From a bacterium (GTDB taxonomy: Bacteria > Hinthialibacterota > Hinthialibacteria > Hinthialibacterales > Hinthialibacteraceae): 64,000 bases of DNA. The stretch lies in contig CAXXMV010000002.1 of the NCBI GenBank assembly GCA_963662285.2, forward strand, positions 1,536,001 through 1,600,000. The letters are read 5' to 3'. Within the stretch, counting starts at the first letter, position 1. Each line of letters opens with the position of its first letter. The notes under the pieces are model-generated. The model was not told where the DNA came from, searched no databases, and was given only the letters and a program-made list of their open reading frames with translations. This document shows, in pieces, positions 30,690 to 59,060 of the stretch. The position numbers and the translations under genes were made by a program.

Positions 30690-31655
30690 CTAGTGAATTT
30701 CCCAGTGATCCACGGAGGTTACCAGGTCTGAATCGATTCCGGTTGCGAAGCCCATGCGATAAGCGCCGGTTGTTTCATGCTTCCCGGAACGCCACATTTT
30801 GAATTGTCCATTGCCATCATACACAACGCTGGGATGGTAGTTGCGATTACCGTTCCATGAATCGATTGGTCCGGCGCCGCCTACTACCCCGACCGGGTCT
30901 TCAATCACATCAAATTCTAATCCATCGGTAGAGCGCAGATATTGAATACCGGGAACATCATAAGCCCGGAAACCCCAGGCCCGGTAATCATTCTCGCTAA
31001 TCTGTATAACAGCGGTAATGTGTAGTCCATCATAGAAAACGGCGAAGTCGTACCATTGCCATGTGATTCCATCGTTAGATTCCATGATGGATGTCTCGGT
31101 TCCTGTTTTTACAAACATGCGGTATGGCGCCCCAGGGAAATCAGGGTTGTATAAAACTGCATGTCCGTCGGGAGAACTGAGAGATTGGCCTTCTTCGGTT
31201 GCGTCGGACATATCAAGGGCCTGGTTGTTTTCCCAGGCGACGCCGTCTTTGGATTCAGCAAATCTGACATGATCGCCCAAGTCGCCCCCACGTCCAAAAA
31301 AGTAGGCTTTGTATGGTGATTCCCAGCCAGTATTGTACAAAATGAAACCACGGCCTACTTGAAATTCTTCGAATTTAATGCCGGTGGTCAATGTCTCATT
31401 GACCCAGTTGACGCCGTCATCGGATTCAGCATAGGTGACCAAGTCAATGCTGCCCTGCTCGTACCATATCTGATATTTCTGCAAATCCGGATTCCAGATG
31501 ATATTCGCCATATACGAACGGTCGCCATCCGGCATGGGCATGTCCAGAGGATTGTCGGGATAATCGGTCCATACGATTTCGGCCTGTGATGGACAGATGT
31601 ATAATAGCGATAAACCTAATACAGCGATTCCTAAGACAAAACATTTTTTAATCAT
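30690..31655 (-). CDS. Secreted five-bladed beta-propeller glycoside-hydrolase-like protein with C-terminal sorting-like motif
   Basis: Signal peptide from MIKKCFVLG (RBS GGAGG); repeated YAESDDGVNW, FAESKDGVAW, ESNDGITW, RSTDGLEF; YHPSVVYD; ends VTSVDHWEIH. Confidence 0.65.
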   Translation of the reverse strand: MIKKCFVLGIAVLGLSLLYICPSQAEIVWTDYPDNPLDMPMPDGDRSYMANIIWNPDLQKYQIWYEQGSIDLVTYAESDDGVNWVNETLTTGIKFEEFQVGRGFILYNTGWESPYKAYFFGRGGDLGDHVRFAESKDGVAWENNQALDMSDATEEGQSLSSPDGHAVLYNPDFPGAPYRMFVKTGTETSIMESNDGITWQWYDFAVFYDGLHITAVIQISENDYRAWGFRAYDVPGIQYLRSTDGLEFDVIEDPVGVVGGAGPIDSWNGNRNYHPSVVYDGNGQFKMWRSGKHETTGAYRMGFATGIDSDLVTSVDHWEIH

Positions 31656-31798
31656 TGTGCATGTTCCTCCTGATGAATACAGAGTTTGAGATAAACGGAA
31701 TATTTCTACACGCTTTGTGTATGAATAAATCATTATCCCTCAAAAGGTTGCATCTTGTCAAACATGGCAAGGCATTATTTATTATTATTCGCAAAGAT

Positions 31799-32719
31799 TT
31801 ATTCTGGCGCCGATATGTCTACATCCCGAACCAAGCGAATACCCAGCCAATGATAACCATTGTTGGGACTGGTGAAATTGCGTCGACCAGACTGACACCA
31901 CTGAGCTTCTCCATTCCAGGGGCCTCCACGGAATATTATGGCGCCATCTTTTGCGGGGCCTTGTGGATCAACTTGAGGCTCGCTGCTATAAGGAGCGAAA
32001 ACATCACTGCACCATTCGTATACATTGGCGTGCATGTCATGCAGTCCCCAGGGATTAGGCAGTTTTTGGCCAATGGGCATAGGGCCTCTCATGGCGGTTT
32101 CGAGGTTTCCGCCCCACCACATGTATTGGTTGGCTAGTTGGCTCCATTCTTTGTTGATGCATTCGGGAGCATTACCGAATGAAAAGCGGGTTGTTGTGCC
32201 TGCGCGACAGGCGTATTCCCATTCGGCTTCGGTAGGTAAGCGGAAAGTTCCCACGTTCAGCTGGTTCATCTGGGATATGAATCTTCTGGTATTATGGAAA
32301 TTGATGCTTACGACAGGATTATTGGGGTCACTCTGAAATGCAGAATGATTGTATCCCATGATTGTTTCAAATTGCACTTGTGAAATTTCGTATTTACCGA
32401 TGTAAAACGGTCTGGTGATGGTTACTTCATGTTGGGGGGTATTATATTTATCGTCTCTGTCTTCAATAATCTCATCTTCAGAAAGCCCCATCATGAATTT
32501 ACCTGCTGGTATCAAAACCATCTCTAAAGCAGTGGCGCTTTTGGGGAGTTGGGCAATTTGAATGGTGATGGTTGGAAAACCATTTGCTGTCGGCTCGCCT
32601 TGGATGATAGTTGCGGTAATATCCTGGGGTGGCGCAGGAATTATTTTGGGTTGATGTACAACAATATTACATCCTGCACAAATCAATAGCGCGATCGAAA
32701 TACAGAAGAAATGTTTCAT
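31799..32719 (-). CDS. Formylglycine-generating enzyme (FGE/SUMF1) domain lipoprotein
   Basis: Lipobox ICAGC; MVLIPAGKFMMG, PQHEVTITRPFYIGKYE, FRLPTEAEWEYACRAG, PNPWGLHDMHANVYEWC, GIRLV. Confidence 0.88.
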   Translation of the reverse strand: MKHFFCISIALLICAGCNIVVHQPKIIPAPPQDITATIIQGEPTANGFPTITIQIAQLPKSATALEMVLIPAGKFMMGLSEDEIIEDRDDKYNTPQHEVTITRPFYIGKYEISQVQFETIMGYNHSAFQSDPNNPVVSINFHNTRRFISQMNQLNVGTFRLPTEAEWEYACRAGTTTRFSFGNAPECINKEWSQLANQYMWWGGNLETAMRGPMPIGQKLPNPWGLHDMHANVYEWCSDVFAPYSSEPQVDPQGPAKDGAIIFRGGPWNGEAQWCQSGRRNFTSPNNGYHWLGIRLVRDVDISAPE

Positions 32720-32723
32720 CGGC

Positions 32724-34931
32724 TCATCCTGTTTCCATTGGAATATTTAATTCCAGGTCTTCGTTGATGAAGAATTGTATTTCATGAATTTGATAATTAG
32801 GAGCGGTGATTGTCATGGTGTGTTCACCCTCCTCTATGCTATCTATATAATAAAAACCACTGCTGTTGCTGGTGGTTTCCTTGTCTCCAATTTTCACTAC
32901 GGCATTGGGAATCAGATTGTAATATACGGCGTCGAAGATAAACCCATACACTGTTGAGGTCGAATAATCCGGCGTGGGACTGGGAGTAGGCGTGGGCGTC
33001 GGCGGCGCGGGCAACAAGCGAATATTCATATTCTGATTCTTGGAGAAGAACCGGGTTAAGGTAAATTCATAATATCCCTCCGCCTGCGCCAGAATCGTAT
33101 ACACATCCGCATTAGGTAAAATGAGTTGATATTCCCCGTTCCATCCGCTGTGGGTAACCTCATCGCCTGCTGAGATTCTGGCGCCCTCAATCGCCTGACC
33201 GCCGATCAAACCCCGCACTTTGCCGGTAATATAGATTTCATCGCCGGTTAGAATTGGCGTGGTTGGTGTGATGGTCGGCGTGTAGGTTGGTACTGGAGTA
33301 TACCCGATTGGAGTAGGCGTCGGGTCGAATCCCTGTAAAAACTGAACTGGTCCCTGCGGTTCGAAGGGACCGTAAAAGATCGGGTGTCCCGTCCTGGTAA
33401 TACAATAAACTTTGAATTCATAGGTTCGATTAAACACTGGACCGTTATGGAAACGGGGCGCCAGCCGGGGCGTTGCATCTCTCCATTCCAGATACTCTTT
33501 GGCGCCGTCAGCCGTCCGGCCTAAATAGGTATACTGCCCGGACTGATTCTCTCGAACGTATACATGAACGTCGGAGATATCATTTGGATTAATTCCGGCT
33601 TGAGCGTAGTTCCATCGGATAACCAGGGCGCGGTCATTCATGCCGTCGTAGTCCATCCCGTTGCTAAGGTCGCTCATGGTGGATAGGTCGTCGGTTATGA
33701 TTACAGTCGATCCAGTTGGATAGGTCGGCGTAATGGTTGGCGTAGCGTTAGCACCGAGAGTGGGCGTACTGGTTGGAATCGGAGTTGGATCGTCGCCATG
33801 AAGAAATTCCACCGGACCGGAATTATTGTATGGTCCATAGAAAAACGGAAAACCGGATAGGGTTAAGAAAAACACTTTGAACTGGTATTCCTGATTGAAT
33901 GAAGGACCGCTCTTGTAGGGATTGGCAATCCGGGGTGCGTCTTTCCTCCATTCGAAATATGTCGCTGAACCGCTCGCGGTCCGTCCCAGGTAATCATAAT
34001 TCTGATTGTCACGTTTCACCCAGACATGAATATCTAAAATCTCGTTGGGATCAACGGGAGCGTTTGCGAAATCCCAGCGGACGACCAAACACCGGTCGGT
34101 CGCGTCATCATAATCCCGCCCGTTGCTTAGATCGCTCATAGTGGTTAGATCGTCGGTTACGATAACCGTCTCGCCTGCGGCAAAGGTTGGCGTAGGCGTT
34201 GGAAGAACTGTGGTGGGAGACGGCGTATTGGTTGGCGTGGGCGTTTCTATTTCCGTGGGAGACGGCGTCACGTCGGGCAGTTCGCTGGGCGTGGGAGTTG
34301 GCGATAGCGTCGGGGTGGGCGATTCTTCCGGAGTGGGCGTTGGAGTAATTCCACTATGGGTAATGCGAACCGATCCGTTCTGCAAGGTCAGGGTGATATG
34401 CCCGTCATTGAGTTGGGTGACTTTTGTACCGGTGGTTTTGAAGGTTAGTGGAACCACTTGATCGGGCGCATCGTCTTTAACGCGCAACTTTAATTTCACC
34501 AGCGTTCCGCTGCCCTCAACCGCTATATATCCAGCGCCATTGATCAGGACTGCTTCCGATAAACGGTTGCCCTGGGTTTTTGAGGCATCGTTTTCATAAG
34601 TAGACCACCCCTTGCACAAGGTTCCGTTCACGGATGAACTGCCGGAGACGAATTCCAGCGGGTATTCCGGCGTGGTGTTGGGTAGATCGATGACAATGCT
34701 GAAACCCAATAATCCTTCTACATTTTCAACGCCTACCTGAACCCAAAATTCCTGGCCGGGGTGCGCGGTTTCTTCGCCGGGCAATGATAGCGTTGTTTGT
34801 CCATGCGCGTTAACGGGTGTTATCGCAAATGCGAGAAGGAGTATGATGGAAAGGAGAATCCATTGATTATTCAGGTTTCTACCTTTATTAAAATGCATGC
34901 TCATGTCAACTACCCTTTCATACAGTTTCAC
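32724..34931 (-). CDS. Secreted modular protein: cohesin, PT linkers, two copies of an unnamed ~125-aa domain, two carboxypeptidase-regulatory-like Ig domains
   Basis: LSLPGEETAHPGQEFWVQVGVENVEGLLGFSIVI..GSGTLVKLKLRVKDDA..LNDG (cohesin-like); TVIVTDDLTTMSDLSNGRDYD x2; ITGKVRG..IEGARISAG..GEY. Real start probably near 34898. Confidence 0.72.
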   Translation of the reverse strand: MKLYERVVDMSMHFNKGRNLNNQWILLSIILLLAFAITPVNAHGQTTLSLPGEETAHPGQEFWVQVGVENVEGLLGFSIVIDLPNTTPEYPLEFVSGSSSVNGTLCKGWSTYENDASKTQGNRLSEAVLINGAGYIAVEGSGTLVKLKLRVKDDAPDQVVPLTFKTTGTKVTQLNDGHITLTLQNGSVRITHSGITPTPTPEESPTPTLSPTPTPSELPDVTPSPTEIETPTPTNTPSPTTVLPTPTPTFAAGETVIVTDDLTTMSDLSNGRDYDDATDRCLVVRWDFANAPVDPNEILDIHVWVKRDNQNYDYLGRTASGSATYFEWRKDAPRIANPYKSGPSFNQEYQFKVFFLTLSGFPFFYGPYNNSGPVEFLHGDDPTPIPTSTPTLGANATPTITPTYPTGSTVIITDDLSTMSDLSNGMDYDGMNDRALVIRWNYAQAGINPNDISDVHVYVRENQSGQYTYLGRTADGAKEYLEWRDATPRLAPRFHNGPVFNRTYEFKVYCITRTGHPIFYGPFEPQGPVQFLQGFDPTPTPIGYTPVPTYTPTITPTTPILTGDEIYITGKVRGLIGGQAIEGARISAGDEVTHSGWNGEYQLILPNADVYTILAQAEGYYEFTLTRFFSKNQNMNIRLLPAPPTPTPTPSPTPDYSTSTVYGFIFDAVYYNLIPNAVVKIGDKETTSNSSGFYYIDSIEEGEHTMTITAPNYQIHEIQFFINEDLELNIPMETG

Positions 34932-34970
34932 TTGTTACTGATATAACACATATTTACAAGGATTGAAAGA

Positions 34971-35013: not shown

Positions 35014-35031
35014 CGTTATTTAATTTCAATA

Positions 35032-38000
35032 CTATTCAGGGTAATTCAGGTTGATTCTGATTTGCCCGTCATTTACCAGCGTCTGTTGTTCGTCGACTTG
35101 AATTAGTAGCGGTTCTGTCAGGGCGCCTGATAAGTCGAACTTCACCGACATCAGGTTGCTTTGGCCTTGTTGCAATGGCGTTCCCAAGGCGCCTGACAGG
35201 ATTAGGCGGCCTGGTTCGGAGTCGTTGACGGCCAGCAACCCTGATGGAACCAGCCATCCGCTTGCCGCCCCGTTGAATTGCAGCTGTTCTGGATTGTACG
35301 ACAGGTCTATGCGTAAACCTTGTACATCATCCGCATTATCGATTTGGAAGGTTACAATCCATGAACTATCCTGCTGCTCGAAGAGCACATTCATGTTTCG
35401 GGCGGTTTGGCGTTTTGATACTTTGCCAGCTGGCAACGGCTCATCCGGCCCCCATTGATCGTGATCTGTATCAGCAGGGAACCAATCAATCAGCAACGCG
35501 TATTTTTGCAGAACCAGCGAGGCGTCCAGCGTTCCCGCTACATCATCGTCGTTCACATCAGCTGCTATCGGGAAATTGAGCCAAGGCTGCATAGGATCAG
35601 GATAGTATTCAGGATAATCGAGCACCGGATAGCCAGGGAAACTGTCTATCAATTCAGCGTTGAATTGCAGCAATAGCGATGCATCGACTGAGCCTGCCTG
35701 AGCGTTGTCGTTGAGGTCGCCCCACATGAAGGGGATGTAAATCTTTATCACAAACTGTTGAGCAGGCGAGTGGTTGATTCCACCGTTGGCGATGCCGCCG
35801 CTGTCGAATAGAGTTGCGGTTGCATCAAACACGCCGTGTGTATTCACATTTGGCGTGAAGCGCAAGGTTCCACCTGCATCGATGGTTGGCGATGCCGAGA
35901 ACAATTCGGGGTTGCTGGTTTCAACGTCGAACCAAACTATCTGAGATGATTCGTTCGCCGGACCAGTGCTGATCGCAGTCGCCCATGCGGGAAATGTATG
36001 CTGCCCGCCAGTGGCGTTGAGAACCACCGCAGTAGCGCCCGCGATGAAGGATGGAGCGTCGTTGACCGGATCGGCGGTAATGCTGAAAATGTAAGGCGTC
36101 GAACTATCGATGCCGCCGTTGGCGGTTCCACCTGAGTCATGCAGAACGGCGGTGGCGTTGCAAATACCGTACTCGTCGCTAGCCAATGTATAACGTAACG
36201 CTCCGGACGCATCGATGGTTGGTTGAACAAAGAACAGCGATGCATTATCAATATCCAACGTGAAATTCAAATCCTGCCAAGATTCATAGGCTATGCCTGG
36301 GCTGATGTCAGTAGCCCAGCCAATGATTTCATGGGCGCCGGAATCTTCCAGCACAACTTCGTTGGCGCCGCCCGTGAAGGTCGGGATATGGTTTGGACCG
36401 AGAACTGTGGCGCTCCAGATTTCTGTACTGTAAGCGATAGCGTCTTCGTTCAAACTTGTTAGCGGAGTGAAACTAACAGATATAGGCGTAAAGTCGGCTA
36501 ACGTCTCGTTGACATGCAGTTGGAATTTCATCAACGACCCTGCACCGCTCGCTAAAGCATCCGTAGCGCTGGCGCAGGTGAAGATGGCTATTTCGGGGCT
36601 GGAACTGTTTACAACCAAAGGCCCCCAACCGTTTTCTGTGGAGGTTCCAACCTTGGTCGCTGAACCTGGAACGTAAGTTACTTTGCTTGGGTCGAGGTCT
36701 AGGGCTATGCGGTAGCCGACGACGCCTGATGCGTCGGAGATGTTGATGGCTATTTCTACGTCTTGATTTCGGTTGACGTTGATTTCGCTCGGTTCGAGGG
36801 AGAGGATGGGAACAGATGCAGGTTCAGCAAAAAACATCCGCCCATACGCACCACTACCAGAACCATCTTGAGGATAACTCGTATAGGCAAAGGCTATATT
36901 TCCATTATCATTCATATCAATATCATAAGGTGCATGCGTATCATAATTTGTATATGCATTTACATAAAATTCGTCTCCTATAGGATTTCCAATTGGATCG
37001 AAACGTTGAGCATACATACCCCTTGCATATCCATCTTGATCAGTACTCTGCCAACCAATAATGAAATTACCATAATTATCTATAGCAATGCAGGGAGTTG
37101 ATTGATCATTTGTTGTATAGGTATTGACCAGAATTTCTGATCCAAGAGTATTACCATTTGAATCAAATCGTTGAGCCTTCACATCATAATCGGATAAAGA
37201 ATTATCTTGCCAAGTAATCACATAACTCCCACTATCATTCATTGCAATACGTGGACCACTTTGATGTCCAGTGGTTGTAGAATTGATTAGAGTTTCGGAA
37301 CCAACCTCATTACCATTTGAATCATATCGTTGAGAATATACACCATAACCTGATCCATCTTGCCCATCACTCTGCCAAACGGTAATAAAATTACCCGAGG
37401 AATTCATCGCGATGCCTGAGGACATTTGATAACCCGTAGTGTATGTGTTGACTTGAAATTCAGTGCCAACTTTGTTTCCATTACTGTCAAACCGTTGCGC
37501 ATACACACCACGGTCTGATCCATCTTGCCCGTTGCTATCCCATATAATAATGAAATCACCCGAAGAATTCATGGCGATATCTCTGGGAAATTGATTATCC
37601 GAAATGTATGTGTTGACTTGAAATTCAGCACCTATTTTGTTTCCATTACTGTCAAACCGTTGTGCGTATACTCCCTCCCCTGAACCATCTTGTCCATCAC
37701 TTACCCAAGTAATAACAAAATCACCAGTAGTTTTATTGATTGCAATTTGAGCACTCCTTTGATAACTGCTAGAGTAAGTATTTACTTTTATTTCACCCGT
37801 TAATGGTGTTGCATCGCTATCAAAAATTCTTGTATAGACACTATCCTGTGAACCATCTTGCCAATCACTTTGCCATGTATAAACAACTCGCCCATTGTTA
37901 TCCATCGCACAAGACGGATAACCTTGATGACTTGAAATATACGTATTTAGCTGAAATTCGTTTCCGACTGTTATCAGTTCAGAAGCACACACATTCATTG

Positions 38001-38064
38001 AACTAACAACAATTCCAATAACTGCCACAATATTCATGTACTTTGATAGAATTAGCCGTTTCAT
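35032..38064 (-). CDS. Array member 6: 7x EFQVNTY-repeat propeller plus cohesin-cadherin2-dockerin-cohesin stalk
   Basis: Signal peptide from MKRLILSK (RBS AAGGAGG); seven EF(Q/Y)VNTY..W.S.GQDGS..GVYAQRFD-type repeats; shared stalk ~35032-36810. Confidence 0.85.
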   Translation of the reverse strand: MKRLILSKYMNIVAVIGIVVSSMNVCASELITVGNEFQLNTYISSHQGYPSCAMDNNGRVVYTWQSDWQDGSQDSVYTRIFDSDATPLTGEIKVNTYSSSYQRSAQIAINKTTGDFVITWVSDGQDGSGEGVYAQRFDSNGNKIGAEFQVNTYISDNQFPRDIAMNSSGDFIIIWDSNGQDGSDRGVYAQRFDSNGNKVGTEFQVNTYTTGYQMSSGIAMNSSGNFITVWQSDGQDGSGYGVYSQRYDSNGNEVGSETLINSTTTGHQSGPRIAMNDSGSYVITWQDNSLSDYDVKAQRFDSNGNTLGSEILVNTYTTNDQSTPCIAIDNYGNFIIGWQSTDQDGYARGMYAQRFDPIGNPIGDEFYVNAYTNYDTHAPYDIDMNDNGNIAFAYTSYPQDGSGSGAYGRMFFAEPASVPILSLEPSEINVNRNQDVEIAINISDASGVVGYRIALDLDPSKVTYVPGSATKVGTSTENGWGPLVVNSSSPEIAIFTCASATDALASGAGSLMKFQLHVNETLADFTPISVSFTPLTSLNEDAIAYSTEIWSATVLGPNHIPTFTGGANEVVLEDSGAHEIIGWATDISPGIAYESWQDLNFTLDIDNASLFFVQPTIDASGALRYTLASDEYGICNATAVLHDSGGTANGGIDSSTPYIFSITADPVNDAPSFIAGATAVVLNATGGQHTFPAWATAISTGPANESSQIVWFDVETSNPELFSASPTIDAGGTLRFTPNVNTHGVFDATATLFDSGGIANGGINHSPAQQFVIKIYIPFMWGDLNDNAQAGSVDASLLLQFNAELIDSFPGYPVLDYPEYYPDPMQPWLNFPIAADVNDDDVAGTLDASLVLQKYALLIDWFPADTDHDQWGPDEPLPAGKVSKRQTARNMNVLFEQQDSSWIVTFQIDNADDVQGLRIDLSYNPEQLQFNGAASGWLVPSGLLAVNDSEPGRLILSGALGTPLQQGQSNLMSVKFDLSGALTEPLLIQVDEQQTLVNDGQIRINLNYPE

Positions 38065-38208
38065 AACATCTCCTCCTTTTGTTTTTTGGATAATCAAAAT
38101 TATCCTATTATCACTATGGTTTATATGCGGATAAAACATATGTTTTTTTGATCATTATCAATTTTTGACTTATGAAACTTGATCTTCTCTTCCTTGGATA
38201 AGAAATTA

Positions 38209-41200: not shown

Positions 41201-42027
41201 GTTGTAATAGAACCTTGGATATCCTTATTTGAATTTGTTGCTGAATTACCATAAACAATACTATTTATTAAACTATTGCCTGAACTACCCCATAATAGAA
41301 TTCCACCACCACCATACGCAGTTGCGGAATTTCCAGTGATAGTACAATTTGAAATAGAGACATTAGTGTTCCCGTCCACTCCACCCCCTTTTTCTGCTGA
41401 GTTTCCTGTAATAGTACAATTCGATAAATTGATAGATGAAGCAGAATACTGATCACCGAATACTCCACCACCATCTTTTGCTGTATTTCCAGAAATCAAG
41501 CAATTAAAGGCATTCAAGGTCCCGGAAACATATATCCCTCCACCCCAATCATTGGTCGTCCTACAATTAAGTATGGCGCAATTTTCTAATGTAAGTACGG
41601 AATTAACATAAATGCCAATACCCCCACCTTTTCCATAACCTCCATTACCATTTTGCATTGTCAAATTACGTATCGTAACAGTTGAATTTTGCGTTATTGT
41701 AAAAATACTGACGCTATCATTTCCGTCCAATGCTAAGGTATCTGCTCCAAGACCATCAATAGTTATTGCTTTGCCACTTATATACAATTGCGAATTCAAA
41801 TATATAATCTGACTGGATAATGAAGAATCAAAAACAATTGTATCACCACTAACTGAATCTGTGATTGCCTGCCTTAGTGATCCAGCACCACTGTCATTCG
41901 TATTAGTAACTGTTAGCGAGTACGAATTTTGCGTTAACAATACTACGCAACACATCACAGATAACAAAACAAATAATACCTTTTTTAATGCTAATCTTCC
42001 ATGTTCTGATACGTTATCTTTGTTCAT
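38266..42027 (-). CDS. Array member 5: beta-helix/choice-of-anchor-Q plus YVTN (YncE-like) propeller plus shared stalk
   Basis: VTNTNDSGAGSLRQAI, GGGI repeats, LADNGGPTQTHALLTGSPAID..DQRG..DIGAYE; YVTNNNDDSVSVIDT-type repeats; stalk ~38266-40045. Confidence 0.87.
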   Translation of the reverse strand: MNKDNVSEHGRLALKKVLFVLLSVMCCVVLLTQNSYSLTVTNTNDSGAGSLRQAITDSVSGDTIVFDSSLSSQIIYLNSQLYISGKAITIDGLGADTLALDGNDSVSIFTITQNSTVTIRNLTMQNGNGGYGKGGGIGIYVNSVLTLENCAILNCRTTNDWGGGIYVSGTLNAFNCLISGNTAKDGGGVFGDQYSASSINLSNCTITGNSAEKGGGVDGNTNVSISNCTITGNSATAYGGGGILLWGSSGNSLINSIVYGNSATNSNKDIQGSITTSQYNIVGTGGVPDGVNGNMVGIDPLFDSLADNGGPTQTHALLTGSPAIDYAPTGLAVDQRGVSRPQGSAYDIGAYEFVVQETIIPQILGYIPLTNSNEVSLVDFDDNSVIQTIPVGTFPRCVAANPKMNRVYVSNANSGDVSVIDTITNTVIDTISISGIPLHLAVNPNGNQLYIVTQSPSYVLVVDTSNNSVITTISAGSYPIGVCTDYAGENVYVGDRNTNRVYVINAITNSIKTSFTVPFSLLAFETSADDSRLYIASDSAGIVAVVDTMNYSTLHTISVCNTPISLVAHPTKNLLYVINRDDDNVLVINTLSNMVITTIPVGDAPHGISINNNGSRIYVTNNNDDSVSVIDTETNSVINSFWVGDGPESIGNFIIDNKPLPTIDFNPTDLNVHRNQGVEITVNISDASDIVGYRIALDLDPSKVTYVPGSATKVGTSTENGWGPLVVNSSSPEIAIFTCASATDALASGAGSLMKFQLHVNETLADFTPISVSFTPLTSLNEDAIAFSTEIWSATVLGPNHQPYFIGGANQVVLEDSGAHEIIGWATDISPGIAYESWQDLNFTLDIDNASLFFVQPTIDASGALRYTLASDEYGICNATAVLHDSGGTANGGIDSSTPYIFSITADPVNDAPSFIAGATAVVLNATGGQHTFPGWATSISVGPANESDQSVWFFYVETSNPELFSASPTIDAGGTLRFTPNLNTHGVFDATATLFDSGGIANGGINHSPAQQFVIKIYIPFMWGDLNDNAQAGSVDASLLLQFNAELIDSFPGYPVLDYPEYYPDPMQPWLNFPIAADVNDDDVAGTLDASLVLQKYALLIDCFPADLNCDQWGPDEPLPAGKVSKRQTARNMNVLFEQQDSSWIVTFQIDNADDVQGLRIDLSYNPEQLQFNGAASGWLVPSGLLAVNDSEPGRLILSGALGTPLQQGQSNLMSVKFDLAGAQTEPLLIQVDEEQTLVNDGQIRINLNYPE

Positions 42028-51202: not shown

Positions 51203-51376
51203 GATGCAAATCTCCTTATGATAAATATGTTTTTTACTCATTATTAACTTTTGTTTTATGAAACTTGATCTTCCCCTTCATCGATGGAAAACATCAAGTG
51301 TCAGAAGGCGTGATTCCACTGATCTTTCTATTAATACTGTAATCATTGTAATAACATAACAAATGAATAAGAGAAT

Positions 51377-51433: not shown

Positions 51434-54400
51434 CTATTCGGGGTAATTCAGGTTGATTCTGATTTGCCCATCGTTAACTTGCGTCTGTTGTTCGTTGACT
51501 TGAATTAGTAGCGGTTCTGTCTGGGCGCCTGCTAAGTCGAACTTCACTGACATCAGGTTGCTTTGGCCTTGTTGCAATGGCGTTCCCAAGGCGCCTGAAA
51601 GAATCAAGCGGCCTGGCTCTGAATCGTTGACGGCCAGCAACCCTGATGGAACCAGCCATCCGCTTGCCGCCCCGTTGAATTGCAGTTGTTCTGGATTGTA
51701 CGACAGGTCTACGCGTAAACCTTGTACATCATCCGCATTATCGATTTGGAAGGTTACAATCCATGAACTATCCTGTTGCTCGAAGAGCACATTCATGTTT
51801 CGGGCGGTTTGGCGTTTTGATACTTTGCCAGCTGGCAGCGGTTCATCCGGCCCCCATTGATCGTGATCGGTATCCGCCGGGAACCAATCAATCAGCAAGG
51901 CGTATTTTTGCAGAACCAGCGATGCGTCCAGCGTTCCCGCTACATCATCGTCGTTCACATCGGCTGCTATCGGGAAATTAAGCCAAGGCTGCAAAGGATC
52001 GGGATAGTATTCAGGATAATCTAGTACTGGATAGCCAGGGAAACTGTCTATTAATTCAGCGTTGAATTGCAGCAATAGCGATGCATCGACTGAGCCTGCT
52101 TGGGCGTTGTCATTGAGGTCGCCCCACATGAAGGGGATGTATATCTTTATCACAAACTGTTGAGCAGGTGAGTAGTTGATCCCGCCATTGGCGACGCCGC
52201 CGCTGTCGAATAGAGTTGCGGTTGCATCAAACACGCCGTGAGTATTCAGGTTTGGCGTGAAGCGCAAGGTTCCACCTGCATCGATGGTTGGCGATGCCGA
52301 GAACAATTCGGGATTACTGGTTTCAACGTCGAACCAAACTATCTGAGATGATTCGTTCGCCGGACCAGTGCTGATATCTGTCGCCCATGCGGGAAATGTA
52401 TGCTGCCCGCCAGTGGCGTTGAGAACCACCGCAGTAGCGCCCGCGATGAAGGATGGAGCGTCATTAACCGGATCGACTGTGATGCTGAATACAAACGGCG
52501 TCGAACTATCAATGCCGCCGTTAGTGGTTCCACCGGAGTCATGCAGCACGGCGGTGGCGTTGCAAATACCATACTCGTCGGAAGCCAGCGTATAACGCAG
52601 CGTTCCTGACGCATCGATGGTTGGTTGAACAAAGAACAGCGATGTATTATCAATATCCAATGTAAAATTCAAATCCTGCCAAGATTCATAGGCTATACCG
52701 GGGCTGATGTTCGTAGCCCAACCAATGATTTCATGAGCGCCGGAATCTTCCAAAACAACTTGGTTCGCTCCACCTATAAAATACGGCTGATGGTTTGGAC
52801 CAAGCACGGTGGCGCTCCAGATTTCTGTACTGAAAGCGATGGCATCTTCGTTGAGACTTGTTAGCGGAGTGAAGCTGACAGATATAGGCGTAAAGTCGGC
52901 TAACGTCTCGTTGACATGTAATTGGAATTTCATCAACGACCCAGGGCCGCTCGCTAAAGCCTCCGTAGCGCTGGCGCAGGTAAAAATGGCTATTTCAGGG
53001 CTGGCGCTATTAACAACCAAAGGCCCCCAACCGTTTTCTGTAGAGGTTCCCACCTTGGTCGCTGAACCTGGGACGTAGGTTACTTTGCTAGGATCAAGGT
53101 CTAGGGCTATGCGGTAGCCGACGATGTCTGAAGCATCGGAGATGTTAACGGTGATTTCTACGTCTTGATTTCGGTGGACGTTGAGGTTGGTGGGTTGGAG
53201 AGTGAGTATGGGATCATCTGAAGATAAAGACATAATCCATGTATCATCATGCCATATTCCACTATCATCTGCGCCACCATATAGAATCAGCTGATCATTA
53301 GCAGAATCATAGACCATTGGTGCATAATATCTTTCAGGTCCATTGTCTGTCAGCAATTCCCATTGTGTTCCATCCCATACCCACGTTTCAGATTTCATAT
53401 CAAAGTTCGGATAATTACTTGCGCCTCCATAAAGTATTATCCTATCTTTGTGACTATCATATGCCATTGAGGGAGCATAAAGATCGCCAGGAGTTTCATC
53501 GGGTATCAAATTCCAATTATTTCCATCCCACAGCCAAGTACTTTCTACATAAGAAGAATCCATTCCACCATATAAAACAGTGTTATTATTAATCATATCA
53601 TAAGACATGCCGAAAACGCTTCGGGCGGATGGCCCCGTATTGGTTGGATTATACCACTGTGCGCCATCCCATTCCCACGTATCACCTAAACGTCCAACAG
53701 CATTGCCGCCACCGAAAAGAACAATCTTTTCTCTTACTGGATCGTGAGTAATTTGGAAAAAGGTACGAGGTGTTGGTTTAATTCCGACAGGGGTAAGATC
53801 GATCCAATTATAACCATTCCATATCCATAAATCATTCAAATAATTTTGATTTGGATAAGTCCCGCCGAACATAACTACTTGATTTCCTGTCGAATCGTAG
53901 GTCATCCCTTGACCATATCGTATATGTGGAATTGTAGATGGAAATAATTGTTCCCATTGAGCTCCATTCCATTGCCATGTGTTTTGCATTGCATTTCCAT
54001 TAGAAATGGAAGCCCCTCCAAAGAGAATAACTTCTTCGCTTGACTCATCATATGACATATTAGCCCAGCGAACACCTGGGCCAGTTGTTGATACTAACTG
54101 CCACACATAGTGGGGTTGAACTGTGATGCTGGCGCCGGTGATGGATGATGGAGTGATATCGTTGCCATTCGTATCCGCCAAATCTATTATTTCCAGAGTT
54201 ATATCCGTTTGGCCAATCGAGAGGGCGGTCAAATTGATCGTGGCCACGTTTATGATTCCTGTTGGAGCCGACATGCTTCCGGTGTTGACATCCAGAAAGA
54301 TCGCTTCACCTGGCGTGGTTAGATTGACCTGGTTGGGCGCGCCGAATTCGGTCGCCGTACCAGCGGTGATGGAATCGACTGTGAGAATGCTATCATCCCA

Positions 54401-54589
54401 TGTCAACCGCGCACGATAATTCCCCAGTGCGCTTGCGCCAACATCGAAGACTAGCGAAACATCACCAGATGCGCCATTCACCAGGCTTAGCGAGCCGGGA
54501 GTAAGGCTTCCGGTTGCGGCATAGGTTGTTATTGATAAACCAATAACCAACGAAAATATCAAGGAAAATATACGAGATGCTGTATTCAT
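51434..54589 (-). CDS. Array member 2: extra N-terminal cohesin, Kelch-type propeller, shared stalk
   Basis: LGNYRARLTWDDSILTV..NVATINLTAL..DLADTNG (cohesin-like); six M.YD....V.LFGG....DTW.WDG..W repeats; stalk ~51434-53210. Confidence 0.85.
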   Translation of the reverse strand: MNTASRIFSLIFSLVIGLSITTYAATGSLTPGSLSLVNGASGDVSLVFDVGASALGNYRARLTWDDSILTVDSITAGTATEFGAPNQVNLTTPGEAIFLDVNTGSMSAPTGIINVATINLTALSIGQTDITLEIIDLADTNGNDITPSSITGASITVQPHYVWQLVSTTGPGVRWANMSYDESSEEVILFGGASISNGNAMQNTWQWNGAQWEQLFPSTIPHIRYGQGMTYDSTGNQVVMFGGTYPNQNYLNDLWIWNGYNWIDLTPVGIKPTPRTFFQITHDPVREKIVLFGGGNAVGRLGDTWEWDGAQWYNPTNTGPSARSVFGMSYDMINNNTVLYGGMDSSYVESTWLWDGNNWNLIPDETPGDLYAPSMAYDSHKDRIILYGGASNYPNFDMKSETWVWDGTQWELLTDNGPERYYAPMVYDSANDQLILYGGADDSGIWHDDTWIMSLSSDDPILTLQPTNLNVHRNQDVEITVNISDASDIVGYRIALDLDPSKVTYVPGSATKVGTSTENGWGPLVVNSASPEIAIFTCASATEALASGPGSLMKFQLHVNETLADFTPISVSFTPLTSLNEDAIAFSTEIWSATVLGPNHQPYFIGGANQVVLEDSGAHEIIGWATNISPGIAYESWQDLNFTLDIDNTSLFFVQPTIDASGTLRYTLASDEYGICNATAVLHDSGGTTNGGIDSSTPFVFSITVDPVNDAPSFIAGATAVVLNATGGQHTFPAWATDISTGPANESSQIVWFDVETSNPELFSASPTIDAGGTLRFTPNLNTHGVFDATATLFDSGGVANGGINYSPAQQFVIKIYIPFMWGDLNDNAQAGSVDASLLLQFNAELIDSFPGYPVLDYPEYYPDPLQPWLNFPIAADVNDDDVAGTLDASLVLQKYALLIDWFPADTDHDQWGPDEPLPAGKVSKRQTARNMNVLFEQQDSSWIVTFQIDNADDVQGLRVDLSYNPEQLQFNGAASGWLVPSGLLAVNDSEPGRLILSGALGTPLQQGQSNLMSVKFDLAGAQTEPLLIQVNEQQTQVNDGQIRINLNYPE

Positions 54590-54648: not shown

Positions 54649-54813
54649 TTATGATAAAGTCGATCTTAATCCGACTAAATATTGTCCAAGGATCATGGCG
54701 TCGGTTGTGTCGATATCACCATCGCTGTCAATATCACCTCTTTCTTGCGCATGAGTGAGAGAGGGGATTAAGATAAGCGCCAGTAACATACATAAAACGA
54801 TACGTGTCTTCAT
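54649..54813 (-). CDS. 54-aa secreted mini-protein: signal peptide plus a single dockerin-type Ca-loop/helix (below the ORF-track cutoff)
   Basis: Hand translation MKTRIVLCMLLALILIPSLTHAQERGDIDSDGDIDTTDAMILGQYLVGLRSTLS*; RBS GGAAGGAGGA; paralogous to the 5' end of 54961-55875. Confidence 0.75.
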   Translation of the reverse strand: MKTRIVLCMLLALILIPSLTHAQERGDIDSDGDIDTTDAMILGQYLVGLRSTLS

Positions 54814-54960
54814 GGGATAATCCTCCTTCCATGATTGAGGATGTTTTCAATCTTCTAACCACCTGTATGTCTATATTTTTTCGTATTAAGTTCTTGTTCA
54901 GTTTTCAATTCCATTGGTTTATTGCACAAAATCATTGCCATGTGTCTAAGAGAATAAGCG

Positions 54961-55875
54961 TCAAGGATGCAACCTCAGGAGCCGGATTCCAAACTGGGTG
55001 TCGTGGTAGAGGGGCGTGATTTGGTAGCGATAAGCCGACTGTAAGGCTCCCCCGGCACCGGTGGAGGTCCAGCAGCCACCGCGAGCGACACGGTTCGAGC
55101 CTGATGAAGAACCTTGAGGATCAGTTTGATTACTAGACGTATAACTTTCATACCAGTTCTGGCACCACTCAAAAACATTGCCGCTCATGTCAAATAAGCC
55201 CCATGGATTGGGCAATTTTAGTCCTACTGGTTGAGTTCCATGTTCTTCTGCGTGGGGTAATGTCCAATTAGGAGAACGTGCATTATTCTGATACCAGCAG
55301 TATTGTTTTATGATGTCTTCCGCGTCGCTGTAACCCCAATAATGGATATCTGTAGTCCCCGCACGGCAGGCGTACTCCCATTCCGCCTCCGTTGGTAAGC
55401 GAAATGTACCTAACCCCAGTTGGTTTAGATTAGTAATAAACACTTGGCTATCATCCCAAGATACTGTTTCAACTGGGTTGTTCGGATTTCCGCTGAAACC
55501 GGAAGGATTACTGCCCATTACGGCTTGCCACTGCGCCTGGGTAACTTCGTATTTTCCTAAGTAAAAATTCTGCGTAAGAGTGACTTGATGCTGTGGCCCA
55601 TATGTTGGCGATCCCATAATGAACGTCCCCGCAGGAATCAGTGTCATTTCTAGCGCTATCGCTTCAACTGGGAGGTTTGGAATATTGATTACGATTGTCT
55701 CGAGAGCAGGAGCAGACAATGAATCTCGAAGCCCTACCAAATATTGTTCGAGTATCATGGCGTCGGTGGTGTCGATATCACCGTCTCCGTCAATATCTCC
55801 GTTGACTTGTGCCTGAGTGAGAGAGGGAATTAAGATAAGCGCCAGTAATATACATAAAACGATACGAATCTTCAT
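54961..55875 (-). CDS. Secreted single-dockerin-motif plus FGE/SUMF1 domain protein
   Basis: MKIRIVLC signal; GDIDGDGDIDTTDAMILEQYLVG; FRLPTEAEWEYACRAG, PNPWGLFDMSGNVFEWC, FGIRL. Confidence 0.85.
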   Translation of the reverse strand: MKIRIVLCILLALILIPSLTQAQVNGDIDGDGDIDTTDAMILEQYLVGLRDSLSAPALETIVINIPNLPVEAIALEMTLIPAGTFIMGSPTYGPQHQVTLTQNFYLGKYEVTQAQWQAVMGSNPSGFSGNPNNPVETVSWDDSQVFITNLNQLGLGTFRLPTEAEWEYACRAGTTDIHYWGYSDAEDIIKQYCWYQNNARSPNWTLPHAEEHGTQPVGLKLPNPWGLFDMSGNVFEWCQNWYESYTSSNQTDPQGSSSGSNRVARGGCWTSTGAGGALQSAYRYQITPLYHDTQFGIRLLRLHP

Positions 55876-55931
55876 AATAAAATCCTCTTTAAATAAGTTT
55901 GCATGTCTAATGGACATAATTGTGTTTAACT

Positions 55932-58900
55932 TTAATGGATCATCCACTCACGAACATCCGTCGGGCTGCTTACATCAATAACTTGTATGCTAACAGATGT
56001 AAGTTGAATCTGACCATCATTAATTTGCGTCATTTCCTCATCGATGTTGATCAGAATTGATCCTACCGCATTTTCCTTTCTGTCGAATTTGACCAGGATC
56101 AAATCACTCGCGCCTTCACCCAGGGGCGCCATCAAGGCGCCTGCTATTATGAAGCGGCCTGGTTCGAGGTTATTGGTGACTATCATGCCGTTGGGGATCA
56201 GCCATTGGGTTTCTGGTTCGTCTACGTTTACTTGGGATGGATCGTAGCGCAGGACGAGACGGACTCCGCTGAGTTGATCTGCATTGTCAATTTTGAAATT
56301 GATAAAATATGAATCGCCGACCGTATCTACTGAAACGCTCATGGTTCTCGCAACGCTGCGCATACCGACTTTGCCCGCTGGCAGTGGAGCATCCGGCCCC
56401 CAATCGTCGTGATCGGTATCTGCGGGGAACCAATCAATCAACAGAGCGTATTGCTGCATGATCAGTGAGGCGTCTACGGTTCCGGCAATATCATCGTTAT
56501 TTACATCAGCTGCGGCGGGGAAATTGAGCCACGGGTGGATCGGGTCTGGATAGTATTCGGGATACTGCGCAACCGGATAACCGGGGAAAGCATCGACCAA
56601 TTCAGCGTCGAATTGCAGCAGCAGCGATGCATCAACCGAACCGGCCTGCGCGTTGTCATTCAAGTCGCCCCACATAAACGGGATGTAGATTTTGGTTACG
56701 TAATACTGAGGCGCGGAGGTTTCAACTCCTCCATTAGCGGTTCCGCCTCCGTCATTCATCACCACTGTTGCGCTGACGACGCCATGCGCTCCAACGTATG
56801 GCGTGAACTGTAATGCGCCTGACGCGTCTATGGTCGGCGTAGCGGAGAATATTTCGGCTTGTTCCGTCTGAACTATGAAAGAGGGAACCTGGCTAGATTC
56901 GTTGGGCGGCCCAACATTGATTCCCGTAATCCAGTTATACAATGTATGCTGACCGCCAGTGGCGTTGAGCACAACCGGCGTCGCTCCAACGATGAATGAA
57001 GGCTGGTCGTTGACCGGCAAAATTTCTATGGTGAAATGATATGGCGTTGACTGGTCGATTCCACCATAGGCCGTCCCGCCGTCGTCATGCAGAATGGCGG
57101 TAGCATCGCAGACGCCAAACGCATTTGCAGAGGGAGTATAATACAATGCGCCCGATATCGGATCGATCCAGGGAGATTCTGAGAATAAACCGGGATTGCT
57201 GTTATCGACGGTGAAATAGACCGATTGTCCTGATTCACTTGATGGCCCCGGCTCGATATTGGTAGCCCAATTAGCATGATTTATTTGCGGAGAATCTTCC
57301 AGCGCGATCTGATTAGGGCCGCCGTCAAAGGTTGGCGGTTGGTTTGGTCCGAGAACAGTTGCATTCCAGATATCCGCCTTAAAAGCCATGGCGTCTTCGT
57401 TGAGGCTGGTCAGGGGATTAAATGAAATAGTGATATTTTCGAGAGATGTAAAACTATCTTCTACATGAACCTGAAATTTCATAAGCGTTGCAGAATCACT
57501 GGAAATTGCTCCGCTGGCGCTGGCGCATGCAAAAATGGCAAGCGCCGGATTGGAGTCATTAACAAATATGGGGCCCCAGCCCGTTTCAGTTGATGTACCA
57601 ACCTTGGTCGCCGAACCGGGGACGTAAGTCACCTTGTTTGGATCAAGGTCCAGGGCGACGCGGTAGCCCACGGTAGAAGAGATATTGTTGGTTAACCGTA
57701 TGGTCAACTCTATGTTCTGATCAGGATTGACGGTAATGTCATCTGGTTCCAACGATAATTCGGGAATTGTAAAAGCATAGACCGAACCTGCATCAACGAC
57801 TCCATCAACATTATCAAGGCGGGCGCTAACCAGCGCGATGCCTCCAGAGAGTGTAACCACTCCAAACAAGTCGTTAGTTCCAAGATCATCGGGTTCCAGA
57901 ATAAGATTCGGGTAATGGATGCTTTGACTTTCCCAACCTGAATCCGGTTTTCTAAAAAGATACGCTATACCCTTTGAAGCATAGGTCGGGGCGCCGATAA
58001 GGACTGCATTATCATCAATTGAATTTGAATACCCGAACTTACCTCCAACAGCGCTGGACGGGTCTTTTTGTAATTGAGCGGTCTCCGTCATATCCGTCCA
58101 GCCGCTTGCGGGCTTCTCAAAAAGATATGTCGTGTTTTCATCAACAGAGGAATCACTGGCCGCTGATACGATGACAGTATTATTATCAATTGCAACATCG
58201 TAGCCGAACTGATCACCGGTTATGCCATCAGAAGCCGTTAAGGTCGCATCGGGGAACAAGGTTCCAGACCACCCGCCGCCTGGTTTAACAAATATATATG
58301 ACTTGCCATTGCCCGAATCATCAACTTGAGGAGAACCAATGACGACTGTATCTCCTGATATATCTACTTCCCAACCAAATTCATCTTTAGATTGCAGACC
58401 AATGACTGATAACGACGCATTCTCAGTAAGCGTTCCAGACCATCCCGTTATAGGTTTTTGGAATATATAAGCGCCCCCGGCGTCACTATTTTCCCCATAG
58501 GCGCCAATAACAACTGTGTCGCCAGACATCGATACTGATTTCCCAAAATCATCATTTCCGGGAAAAGTTGATAACAAGGTTGCATCTGCTATCAAGGTTC
58601 CAGACCAACCGCCCGAAGGTTTAGTAAAGATATATGCATATCCCTTGTAATTAACCGTATTCTTTTTATATGGAACTCCAACGCAAATCACATCACTGGA
58701 AATGGCGACGGCGCGTCCAAATTGGTCATTCGTAACAGGAGAGGGATTAATCAGGGTTGCGGATTTTATCCAATCGCCATTGCTCCGGGTATACACATAC
58801 GCTATTCCGGCATTTATTATGGTATTGAAATCCTTGAGAGGTTCACCGATTACCGCGATATCGCCTTCAATTGACAACTCATGACCGAACCGGGCGTTGG

Positions 58901-59060
58901 TCTCAGGAGGATCGGAAAGAATCTTTAAATCGGGCGCTATTATTTCCGCATCACAATATGCTGACAATGAAAAACTCAAAACCATTGTAAGGCATATAAT
59001 TGAAATTCTCATAAATTCATATTTTTCGATCTTTGAGATCATGATAATTATCCCTTTCAT
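55932..59060 (-). CDS. Array member 1: 7x FG-GAP (integrin-alpha-like) propeller, diverged stalk, C-terminal sorting-like motif
   Basis: Seven FG..V.ISGD.VVIGA-type blades; same cohesin/cadherin/dockerin/cohesin order; extended C-terminus ..IDVSSPTDVREWMIH. Exact start uncertain. Confidence 0.85.
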   Translation of the reverse strand: MKGIIIMISKIEKYEFMRISIICLTMVLSFSLSAYCDAEIIAPDLKILSDPPETNARFGHELSIEGDIAVIGEPLKDFNTIINAGIAYVYTRSNGDWIKSATLINPSPVTNDQFGRAVAISSDVICVGVPYKKNTVNYKGYAYIFTKPSGGWSGTLIADATLLSTFPGNDDFGKSVSMSGDTVVIGAYGENSDAGGAYIFQKPITGWSGTLTENASLSVIGLQSKDEFGWEVDISGDTVVIGSPQVDDSGNGKSYIFVKPGGGWSGTLFPDATLTASDGITGDQFGYDVAIDNNTVIVSAASDSSVDENTTYLFEKPASGWTDMTETAQLQKDPSSAVGGKFGYSNSIDDNAVLIGAPTYASKGIAYLFRKPDSGWESQSIHYPNLILEPDDLGTNDLFGVVTLSGGIALVSARLDNVDGVVDAGSVYAFTIPELSLEPDDITVNPDQNIELTIRLTNNISSTVGYRVALDLDPNKVTYVPGSATKVGTSTETGWGPIFVNDSNPALAIFACASASGAISSDSATLMKFQVHVEDSFTSLENITISFNPLTSLNEDAMAFKADIWNATVLGPNQPPTFDGGPNQIALEDSPQINHANWATNIEPGPSSESGQSVYFTVDNSNPGLFSESPWIDPISGALYYTPSANAFGVCDATAILHDDGGTAYGGIDQSTPYHFTIEILPVNDQPSFIVGATPVVLNATGGQHTLYNWITGINVGPPNESSQVPSFIVQTEQAEIFSATPTIDASGALQFTPYVGAHGVVSATVVMNDGGGTANGGVETSAPQYYVTKIYIPFMWGDLNDNAQAGSVDASLLLQFDAELVDAFPGYPVAQYPEYYPDPIHPWLNFPAAADVNNDDIAGTVDASLIMQQYALLIDWFPADTDHDDWGPDAPLPAGKVGMRSVARTMSVSVDTVGDSYFINFKIDNADQLSGVRLVLRYDPSQVNVDEPETQWLIPNGMIVTNNLEPGRFIIAGALMAPLGEGASDLILVKFDRKENAVGSILINIDEEMTQINDGQIQLTSVSIQVIDVSSPTDVREWMIH

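Follow-up and report, generated by a model that had tools for sequence, protein, structure and literature searches.

Results and Discussion

Six Genes with a Common Stalk

The stretch of DNA analyzed here, the window, comprises 64,000 nucleotides from an uncultured bacterium of the Hinthialibacterota (GenBank assembly GCA_963662285.2, contig CAXXMV010000002.1, positions 1,536,001 to 1,600,000), and the locus at positions 30690-59060 of the window encodes six large proteins that combine cohesin-like and dockerin-like modules on a single chain. Eleven open reading frames (ORFs) of note lie in this locus, all on the minus strand and with gaps of -16 to 192 bp between them (Table 1). An initial annotation, made from the sequence alone, had described six co-oriented genes with a common stalk of ~590 amino acids, and the coordinates, the strand and the identities confirm this. 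The six proteins, A through F, end in a common part of ~590-600 residues, with pairwise identities of 89-93% among A-E and 58-59% between F and A-E. At the DNA level, blastn aligns ~1750 bp common to A-E at 90-94% identity, and it finds no match between the stalk of F and the other stalk genes except for 329 bp, at 80% identity, against D. The boundary of the common part is sharp and falls at the end of each head, as we call the portion that precedes the stalk. Within the stalk, the order of modules is cohesin 1, two cadherin-like immunoglobulin-like (Ig) domains, a divergent dockerin and cohesin 2, and each chain of A-F carries one dockerin and two to three cohesins. Judged from the alignments, the resemblance of the six stalks is far beyond chance.

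Table 1. Features of the locus at 30690-59060, in window positions; the modules of the stalks were delimited with our own profiles. Proteins other than A-F and the partner are named by their first position.
Feature	Position	Strand	Length (aa)	Content	Cohesin 1	Ig domains	Dockerin	Cohesin 2
Gene A	35032-38139	-	1035	signal-peptide-like N-terminus, head of ~55-aa repeats, stalk	36394-36810	Ig1 36064-36393, Ig2 35734-36063	35440-35733	35038-35406
Gene B	38266-42027	-	1253	beta-helix, choice-of-anchor Q and YncE-type propeller head, stalk	39631-40047	38968-39630	38674-38967	38272-38640
Gene C	42100-46593	-	1497	39-aa repeat (12 copies by motif count) and LRR head, stalk	43465-43878	42802-43464	42508-42801	42106-42477
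Gene D	46673-51241	-	1522	FG-GAP/VCBS repeat head in 15 stretches (Pfam FG-GAP_3, E 7e-101), stalk	48041-48454	47381-48040	47087-47380	46688-47053
Gene E	51434-54589	-	1051	extra N-terminal cohesin (54158-54481), Kelch propeller head, stalk	52796-53212	52136-52795	51842-52135	51440-51808
Gene F	55932-59060	-	1042	FG-GAP_2 head (Pfam E 3e-54), diverged stalk, ~21-aa C-terminal tail	57345-57767	56682-57344	56388-56681	55989-56354
Partner (32724)	32724-34931	-	735	directly downstream of A; signal peptide, N-terminal cohesin (34374-34796), Pro/Thr linkers, two ~100-aa repeats, two CarboxypepD_reg domains (Pfam E 2e-14)
54961	54961-55947	-		FGE-sulfatase-fold protein (Pfam E 7e-45), signal peptide, one dockerin repeat (55708-55803)
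54649	54649-54813	-	54	truncated copy of the 54961 signal peptide and dockerin repeat
31799	31799-32719	-		second FGE-sulfatase-fold protein (Pfam E 1.3e-39), lipoprotein-like N-terminus (by eye), no dockerin
30690	30690-31733	-	347	secreted; possible GH32/43/130-like propeller; C-terminal tail ...W-E-I-H

The heads, both here and in the related loci described below, consist of binding-type repeats only in Pfam and NCBIfam scans. For gene A, the head matches neither a Pfam or NCBIfam family nor a named Atlas cluster, and its repeats were found by motif count. The head of B matches Pfam Beta_helix and YNCE, together with the NCBIfam models NF041518 (choice-of-anchor Q, E 4e-26) and TIGR02276. 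In C, Pfam LRR_4 matches at E 7e-13, accompanied by an NCBIfam internalin-like LRR match far below the cut-off of its model. E gives Kelch (E 3e-23) and two stretches of Pfam Cohesin (E 2.5e-13), and its extra N-terminal cohesin scores 1.6e-4 against our own profile. No enzyme family was recognized in the six heads by Pfam or NCBIfam, and no carbohydrate-active enzyme (CAZyme), carbohydrate-binding module (CBM) or S-layer homology (SLH) domain was found in the six stalk proteins by the same scans, as the initial annotation had already stated for catalytic CAZyme domains. Across the 11 locus proteins, these scans return no CBM, SLH or LPXTG family. Nor is there a dockerin-tagged CAZyme among the six proteins and 54961 within the window, again by Pfam and NCBIfam, and 30690 carries no dockerin. 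We therefore reject membership in a cellulosome, as these scans of the locus show no CAZymes, CBM or SLH.

Cohesins and Ig Domains of the Stalk

Cohesin 1 is recognized directly by Pfam PF00963 in four of the six proteins, with scores of 33.6 (A), 27.9 (C), 24.2 (D) and 50.9 (E) bits over a cut-off of 24.1, which agrees with the cohesin assignment made initially. The copy in F falls just below the cut-off, at 23.2 bits, and that of B gives no PF00963 row at E ≤ 0.01, though B is ~90% identical to A. In the AlphaFold2 model, cohesin 1 (stalk residues 1-140) has a predicted local distance difference test (pLDDT) score of ~88-96, and Foldseek matches it to 6kgf_C, 6kge_A and 6kgd_A with template modeling (TM, target) scores of 0.74-0.76 and a root-mean-square deviation of 3.0-3.2.

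Cohesin 2, the C-terminal ~120 residues, is less easily seen. It matches cohesin 1 of the same proteins weakly, and PF00963 reaches it below threshold (18.1 bits and E 0.003 in A; 16 bits and E 0.015 in F). With the model of the dockerin and cohesin 2 together, the top 25 PDB chains among the Foldseek matches listed are cohesins, and two CBM chains appear lower. The best match is 5k39_A (E 1e-7), and TM (target) scores span 0.38-0.68 among the matches listed. The second cohesin of the initial annotation thus stands by its fold, but not by its Pfam score. On the basis of the models, both stalk cohesins have a cohesin fold.

The Ig pair gives weak Big_9/Cadherin_5 matches in Pfam (E 0.013-0.099), and in Foldseek this part of the whole-stalk model matches cadherins and a repeat of an RTX adhesin.

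A tree of 34 cohesin domains includes 13 rows of cohesin 2 and six rows of the N-terminal cohesin of the partner protein. Each of these two types occupies one side of a branch, with support of 100/100 and 98/99, respectively, and cohesin 1 needs two changes. The branch to cohesin 2 has a length of 2.49, marking it as highly diverged. The partner cohesin profile aligns with cohesin 1 at an hhalign probability of 96.8% (E 2.7e-10) and with cohesin 2 at 49.6% (E 1.7e-4), which places it nearer to cohesin 1.

A Divergent Dockerin

The dockerins of the window escape Pfam. No family is returned for the dockerin regions of A and F at E ≤ 10, so PF00404 is not reached. The assignment comes instead from an alignment of 42 family members, whose profile gives 30 PDB matches at E ≤ 1; the top ones are dockerins or dockerin-bearing enzymes, led by the ScaB dockerin 4uyq_B (6e-10) and CelD (7e-10). 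Furthermore, 30 of the 42 members match PF00404 by themselves, the best at 4.9e-15. The Dockerin_1 check suggested initially thus fails for the window's own copies and succeeds for most relatives. By way of the profile and these intermediates, the module is assigned to the dockerin superfamily, and Pfam, the family profile against the PDB, and Foldseek agree that the stalk modules are relatives of cohesins and dockerins.

The alignment points to two F-hand loops, each followed by a helix, with putative calcium binding. Position 12 of the calcium loop is Asp in 42/42 members in both repeats, and position 1 is Asp in 37/42 and 41/42; positions 3 and 5 are N/D/S and D/N, and at position 9, Gly mostly takes the place of Asn/Asp. 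AlphaFold2, run on the last two domains, predicts the helices at residues 24-34 and 77-87. Between the two repeats lies an insert of 10-50 residues with a conserved P-E-Y or P-D-F motif, and the end of the module is formed by a third motif, D-x-[ND]-x-D-G-x-G-P-[DE], which is TSP3-like. Relatives also contain 32 stretches with this dockerin alone, 13 of which end at most five residues from the C-terminus, mostly after G-P-[DE].

The Dockerin-Cohesin 2 Unit

The last two domains of the stalk, modeled by AlphaFold2 from an alignment of 52 sequences, form one compact body with a pLDDT of 92.5 and a predicted TM score (pTM) of 0.90; the five models range from 91.2 to 92.5 in pLDDT. The linker between the dockerin and cohesin 2 has a median length of 17 residues and a range of 5-30 across 77 units, and the dockerin adjoins cohesin 2 in 76 matched stretches, six of which are the window's own. 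The whole stalk, modeled from an alignment of 15 sequences, has a mean pLDDT of 79.3, with cohesin 1 and both Ig domains confident. The compact unit and the narrow linker favor docking within one chain, and we predict from the models that the dockerin is seated on cohesin 2 of the same chain, where the two would form a rigid base module.

The initial annotation had proposed a different arrangement, in which the dockerin binds cohesin 1 or 2 of another chain and the proteins polymerize into a branched, Ca-dependent surface mesh; binding that is only intramolecular would refute it, and the predicted unit comes close to that situation. The inventory of one dockerin and two to three cohesins per chain suits a polymer, and the contact that the model places within the chain may in fact join two chains by a swap. 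There is also a precedent in the dockerin of Ruminococcus bromii Amy4, which binds its own cohesin and for which multimerization has been proposed, according to the available text of the reports (PMC4611034; 10.1101/2025.03.31.646359). The short, length-constrained linker and the pTM of 0.90, on the other hand, favor a closed unit, and most related genomes have one stalk gene per locus and no array. On this balance, we regard the mesh as rather improbable.

Relatives in Other Genomes and Evolution of the Stalk

A search with the last 242 residues among 1.84 billion cluster representatives gave 175 relatives at E ≤ 1e-3, of which 64 reach E ≤ 1e-10 and 23 reach E ≤ 1e-30; the 175 carry the dockerin and/or the cohesin 2 part. 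In the search with the stalk, 18 of the 120 matches listed cover at least 60% of it, six being the window's own. The other 102 cover less than 60%, most of them 35-45% (about the two Ig domains), and leave cohesin and dockerin unaligned. The 12 foreign full-stalk relatives have Kelch, FG-GAP_2, NHL or FGE-sulfatase heads.

A scan for related loci, with one genome per species, gave 10 loci, of which eight (L001-L008) encode one stalk protein each, with two to six Ig repeats, and two are ordinary Ruminococcus dockerins. The sole named carrier of a stalk is L008, from the Candidatus Omnitrophota metagenome-assembled genome SURF_12. Its stalk gene (L008:5779-10834) is present as two overlapping ORFs, one with an SBBP propeller head and cohesin 1 and the other with six Ig domains, the dockerin, cohesin 2 and the tail, a split that reflects either a frameshift or an assembly error. 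Candidatus Omnitrophota also supply the nearest named relatives of a housekeeping gene of the window, that for the GH57 branching enzyme, at 74-75% identity, followed at 60-66% by named relatives from other phyla. By this one gene and L008, the host would most likely belong to the Omnitrophota, an assignment with a narrow basis.

Among A-E, the stalk domains have synonymous divergence (dS) of 0.22-0.44 with ratios of nonsynonymous to synonymous substitution (dN/dS) of 0.04-0.17. These values argue that the stalk is kept by purifying selection rather than by recent copying alone, and the same values lead us to reject the idea that recent gene conversion alone made the stalks so alike. The dockerin is the most constrained of the stalk domains (dN/dS 0.04), being 98% identical among A-E and 83% identical to F; the corresponding identities for cohesin 2 are 92.5% and 40%. 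The composition of the genes also changes at the head/stalk junction. The G+C content at third codon positions (GC3) within each gene is 0.24-0.44 in the heads and 0.53-0.57 in the stalks, as in A (0.255 vs 0.566) and B (0.240 vs 0.566), with two other window genes at ~0.46. This break suggests that recombination brought the heads and the stalk cassette together.

The FGE-sulfatase domain provides a further link between stalks and other proteins. In the relatives P0016-P0018 it forms a head on the stalk, in one fused protein, and here it is a separate protein with a dockerin repeat, 54961, which makes 54961 a candidate client of the stalk. The dockerin repeat of 54961 scores 22.3 bits against Dockerin_1, for which the cut-off is 22.9, with residues 50-71 aligned to profile positions 2-23 of 57, and 2e-4 against our own dockerin profile. 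The short ORF 54649 resembles the 5' end of this gene, with 158 bp that are 84% identical to 55733-55890, and is probably a remnant, a duplication scar left between genes E and F. Both had been listed initially as dockerin-motif proteins; the dockerin repeat is indeed present, but 54961 has one repeat and 54649 is a remnant copy. The two FGE-fold assignments, for 54961 and 31799, are borne out by Pfam (Table 1).

These data bear on whether the modules do any docking. The cohesin- and dockerin-like domains might be structural spacers, beta-sandwiches plus a calcium clasp with no plug-and-socket function, in proteins that act singly and next to a gene for a separate surface protein; the locus would then be just another set of large adhesins. 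Cohesin-fold domains do occur without dockerins in adhesion molecules such as TMEM132, as the available text of one study describes (PMC6030884), and both the escape of the window dockerin from Pfam and the length of the cohesin 2 branch are in keeping with such a role. What makes it hard to sustain is that purifying selection holds three distinct cohesin types and a dockerin together across genomes, that the same dockerin type tags the C-termini of other proteins, and that the FGE domain is fused elsewhere and tagged here. We consider simple spacers the least credible of the readings discussed in this work, and very doubtful.

A Conserved Partner Gene

Directly downstream of gene A lies the gene for the partner protein, which had been described initially as a cohesin-only protein. 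Its cohesin is well supported by our own profile (1e-13), and Pfam gives 20.3 bits, below the cut-off. In five of the eight related loci (L001, L002, L003, L005 and L008), the stalk gene is followed directly downstream by an orthologue of the partner gene; L006 stops at a contig edge, so that the partner is not judgeable there. L004 and L007 have no partner within 10 kb, and a relative, P0385, is found on the contig of L007. In all, seven relatives of the partner were found by search. No other neighbor is conserved in the related loci, and the partner, the only gene that keeps its place beside the stalk gene in other genomes, was underweighted in the initial annotation. In the window, the partner gene is followed after 4 bp by 31799. 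In L002, a type I-C-like CRISPR-Cas set (Cas3, Cas5d, Csd1 and Cas7; L002:14776-20291) lies directly downstream of the partner and is not conserved in the other loci.

The partner proteins of the window and of these five loci contain two to eight copies of the ~100-residue repeat, with the pattern ...DLSNG-x-D-x-D...LVIRW...YLGRT...GP-x-F..., for which the matches are weak (fn3_4 or DUF7359). The partner also matches NF052345, a model of an anammox S-layer protein, at E 5e-15, with a score far below the model cut-off.

The conservation of this gene pair raises the possibility of hierarchical docking, in which the partner, acting as an anchoring scaffoldin, would receive all six dockerins in trans on its single cohesin, and the cohesins of the stalks would recruit further dockerin-tagged proteins, much as a primary scaffoldin sits on an anchoring one. 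The pair is present here and in 5/8 loci, and strong constraint on the dockerin is what would be expected if it had one common receptor that is encoded once. That modules of this type work in trans is shown by the relatives with the dockerin alone, and the long Pro/Thr linkers and CarboxypepD_reg domains of the partner are like those of the anammox S-layer protein model, with the match below cut-off as given above. Yet both the predicted compact unit with cohesin 2 and the limited linker length speak for a dockerin that is already occupied, and L004 and L007 are without a partner nearby, the P0385 relative on the contig of L007 notwithstanding. Moreover, a single partner cohesin would have to serve six ligands, and the partner has no recognized membrane or wall anchor. 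Docking onto the partner is, in our estimation, somewhat unlikely, though the strongest competitor to docking within the chain.

A C-Terminal Tail

A tail of ~20 residues ending in W-M-x-[Y/H/F] follows the stalk in 28 of the 36 relatives whose dockerin-cohesin 2 unit ends near the C-terminus. It is present on the stalk proteins of L001-L005, L007 and L008 and, in the window, on F (55935-55997, ending W-M-I-H). The same kind of tail occurs on two secreted proteins that have no stalk, namely 30690 (30693-30755) and a CotH/beta-helix protein (L004:1-2418). The overall pattern is (P)T-x-(V/I)-x-x-W-(M/F/E)-x-(Y/H/Q/W), and no hydrophobic helix is seen by eye. For the tail-bearing F and 30690 proteins, 0 NCBIfam families are returned at E ≤ 0.01, and with them no sorting-domain model of the -CTERM or T9SS CTD kind. 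From its distribution and pattern, we put the tail forward as a candidate new sorting or anchoring tag. As A-E are without the tail of F and of most relatives, they may need to ride on another subunit, a point that speaks for the polymer discussed above.

The tail-bearing protein 30690 had been taken initially for a glycoside hydrolase-like propeller. An Atlas score of 0.88 to glycosylase clusters is a lead in that direction and only a lead, but the protein has no Pfam, NCBIfam or PDB sequence match.

A Proposed Surface Assembly

Taking these results together, we tentatively favor a reading in which A-F are non-enzymatic surface proteins that present swapped heads on a common stalk, with the dockerin docked on cohesin 2 of its own chain. 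A-F would be exported by the Sec pathway, and their heads (Kelch, FG-GAP and YncE-type propellers, LRR, beta-helix) would bind external ligands and be interchangeable. The stalk would serve as a conserved, calcium-stiffened rod with the dockerin-cohesin 2 unit at its base; the choice-of-anchor Q domain in B fits a stalk that acts as an anchor. Cohesin 1 and the N-terminal cohesin of the partner could then be open sockets for other dockerin-tagged proteins, and the candidate clients are the FGE-fold protein 54961 and proteins that end in the stalk dockerin type. The partner, the ~20-residue tail, or both may tie the assembly to the cell envelope. The outcome would be a multi-specific adhesive layer that holds particles, hosts or prey, and not a complex that degrades polysaccharides.

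Several observations weigh against this reading. First, the dockerin is conserved far above cohesin 2, which fits a common external partner better than a private one. Second, the occurrence of this dockerin type alone at C-termini indicates that it can work without a neighboring cohesin. Third, in the whole-stalk model the dockerin is unfolded, with pLDDT below 50 at residues 362-392 and 415-468, and AlphaFold cannot distinguish an intrachain contact from one swapped between two chains. Finally, A-E lack the tail, and the hydrophobic, signal-peptide-like starts on 10/10 full-length locus proteins were recognized by eye.

A bolder version can be drawn from the same elements, namely a self-assembling, Ca-dependent "adhesosome". 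In it, small, host-dependent Omnitrophota cells would use plugs and sockets of the cellulosome type for a modular coat that displays changeable receptor-binding heads and catches hosts or prey, rather than for holding enzymes, the heads being swapped by recombination and the envelope tag being W-M-x-Y. We think it unlikely that all of this holds.

Comparison with Known Systems

Cohesin-dockerin pairs are a textbook case of programmable protein assembly and are known almost wholly from fiber-degrading Firmicutes. In the primary and adaptor scaffoldins of that world, such as CipA of C. thermocellum and ScaA/ScaB of A. cellulolyticus, cohesins and a dockerin occur on one chain. The proteins of the window resemble these scaffoldins in having cohesins and a two-repeat, Ca-type dockerin on a secreted, non-catalytic chain with a separate cohesin protein encoded nearby, and cellulosome structures, both cohesin and dockerin, are the top PDB matches of the stalk modules. 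They differ in carrying a binding head of their own and in that no CBM, dockerin-tagged CAZymes, SLH or sortase anchor was found in the locus. Their dockerin, which has a long insert and an extra motif, is flanked by Ig domains and by a cohesin on which it is predicted to sit. The host, too, is an uncultured bacterium and not a Firmicute, unlike the hosts of scaffoldins.

Non-cellulosomal cohesin and dockerin modules were reportedly catalogued by Peer et al. in 2009, and examples such as proteins of Archaeoglobus fulgidus are said to have been described by Bayer et al. in 1999 and Voronov-Goldman et al. in 2011. PDB entry 2xdh, at rank 37 of the Foldseek matches for the dockerin-cohesin 2 model, presumably belongs with these A. 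fulgidus modules. As in the stalk, the non-cellulosomal modules are said to combine cohesin and dockerin outside the context of cellulose, sometimes on one polypeptide; they reportedly differ in domain order and have no Ig spacers, variable heads or conserved partner gene.

A precedent for self-docking is Amy4 (Sca1) of the R. bromii amylosome, for which the available text reports that the dockerin recognizes the protein's own cohesin and proposes self-association (PMC4611034). The premise of the initial annotation that dockerins serve as tags on enzymes is too simple, as scaffoldins of the primary and adaptor kind pair cohesins with a dockerin, and Amy4 carries both modules and binds its own cohesin. 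Like the window proteins, Amy4 joins a cohesin and a dockerin to a functional part at the N-terminus of the same chain. However, Amy4 is a GH13 amylase in a starch complex anchored by sortase scaffoldins, whereas the window proteins have non-enzymatic heads, two cohesin types and Ig spacers; and self-binding is reported for Amy4, whereas self-docking of the stalk is here a prediction.

Giant ORFs of the Omnitrophota contain dockerin repeats that are read as attachment devices or adhesins in the available portions of three works (PMC10066038; 10.1101/2023.11.21.568195; 10.64898/2026.06.07.730766), and in one preprint among them, dockerin-like helices are described as packing against a beta-barrel of the same chain. 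These proteins, as far as the same portions describe them, have at least 30,000 residues, numerous repeats of the dockerin and TSP3 types and barrels that resemble CBM35, in contrast to the ~1,000-1,500 residues of the window stalk proteins. Cohesin-bearing stalks, the partner gene and the tail go unmentioned in those portions, and the word "cohesin" occurs 0 times in the available text of 10.64898/2026.06.07.730766. A cellulosome-like enzyme complex has been inferred for Cloacimonadota in the accessible part of another report (PMC8542988). The stalk Ig domains are of the same repeat type as those of the tandem-95/Big_9/Cadherin_5 repeat adhesins, and relatives have 2-6 copies.

What is already known, then, is that cohesin and dockerin can occur on one chain outside cellulosomes; what seems to be new is this stalk, the partner gene and the tail. 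The suggestion that the system was undescribed fits our finding no description of these three in the literature searched, with supplements not covered. If the proposal is true, a cohesin-dockerin system would serve cell attachment in a phylum of tiny, probably host-dependent bacteria, and its clonable modules (three cohesin types, one dockerin type and a possible sorting tag) would allow study of how such cells hold on to partners. The unit of a dockerin on its own cohesin would also be added to the toolbox of protein engineering.

Other Features of the Window

Elsewhere in the window, the gene for RtcB (11860-13049) appears split by a frame change into two ORFs that overlap at 12372-12381, and a CotH kinase-like gene (6065-8037) seems to break near 7465-7506; both breaks reflect either decay or assembly indels. 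The region 3931-5709 holds an ORF that contains a T4 gp19-like tail-tube domain (E 2e-10) and, after it, a 411-residue ORF without a family. The pair may be a remnant of a contractile-injection system or a prophage, and no link to the stalk locus was seen. Just past the locus, 29264-30328 encodes a prenyltransferase/squalene-cyclase-like alpha/alpha-toroid protein with a twin-arginine-like N-terminus, RRQFIKK, recognized by eye.

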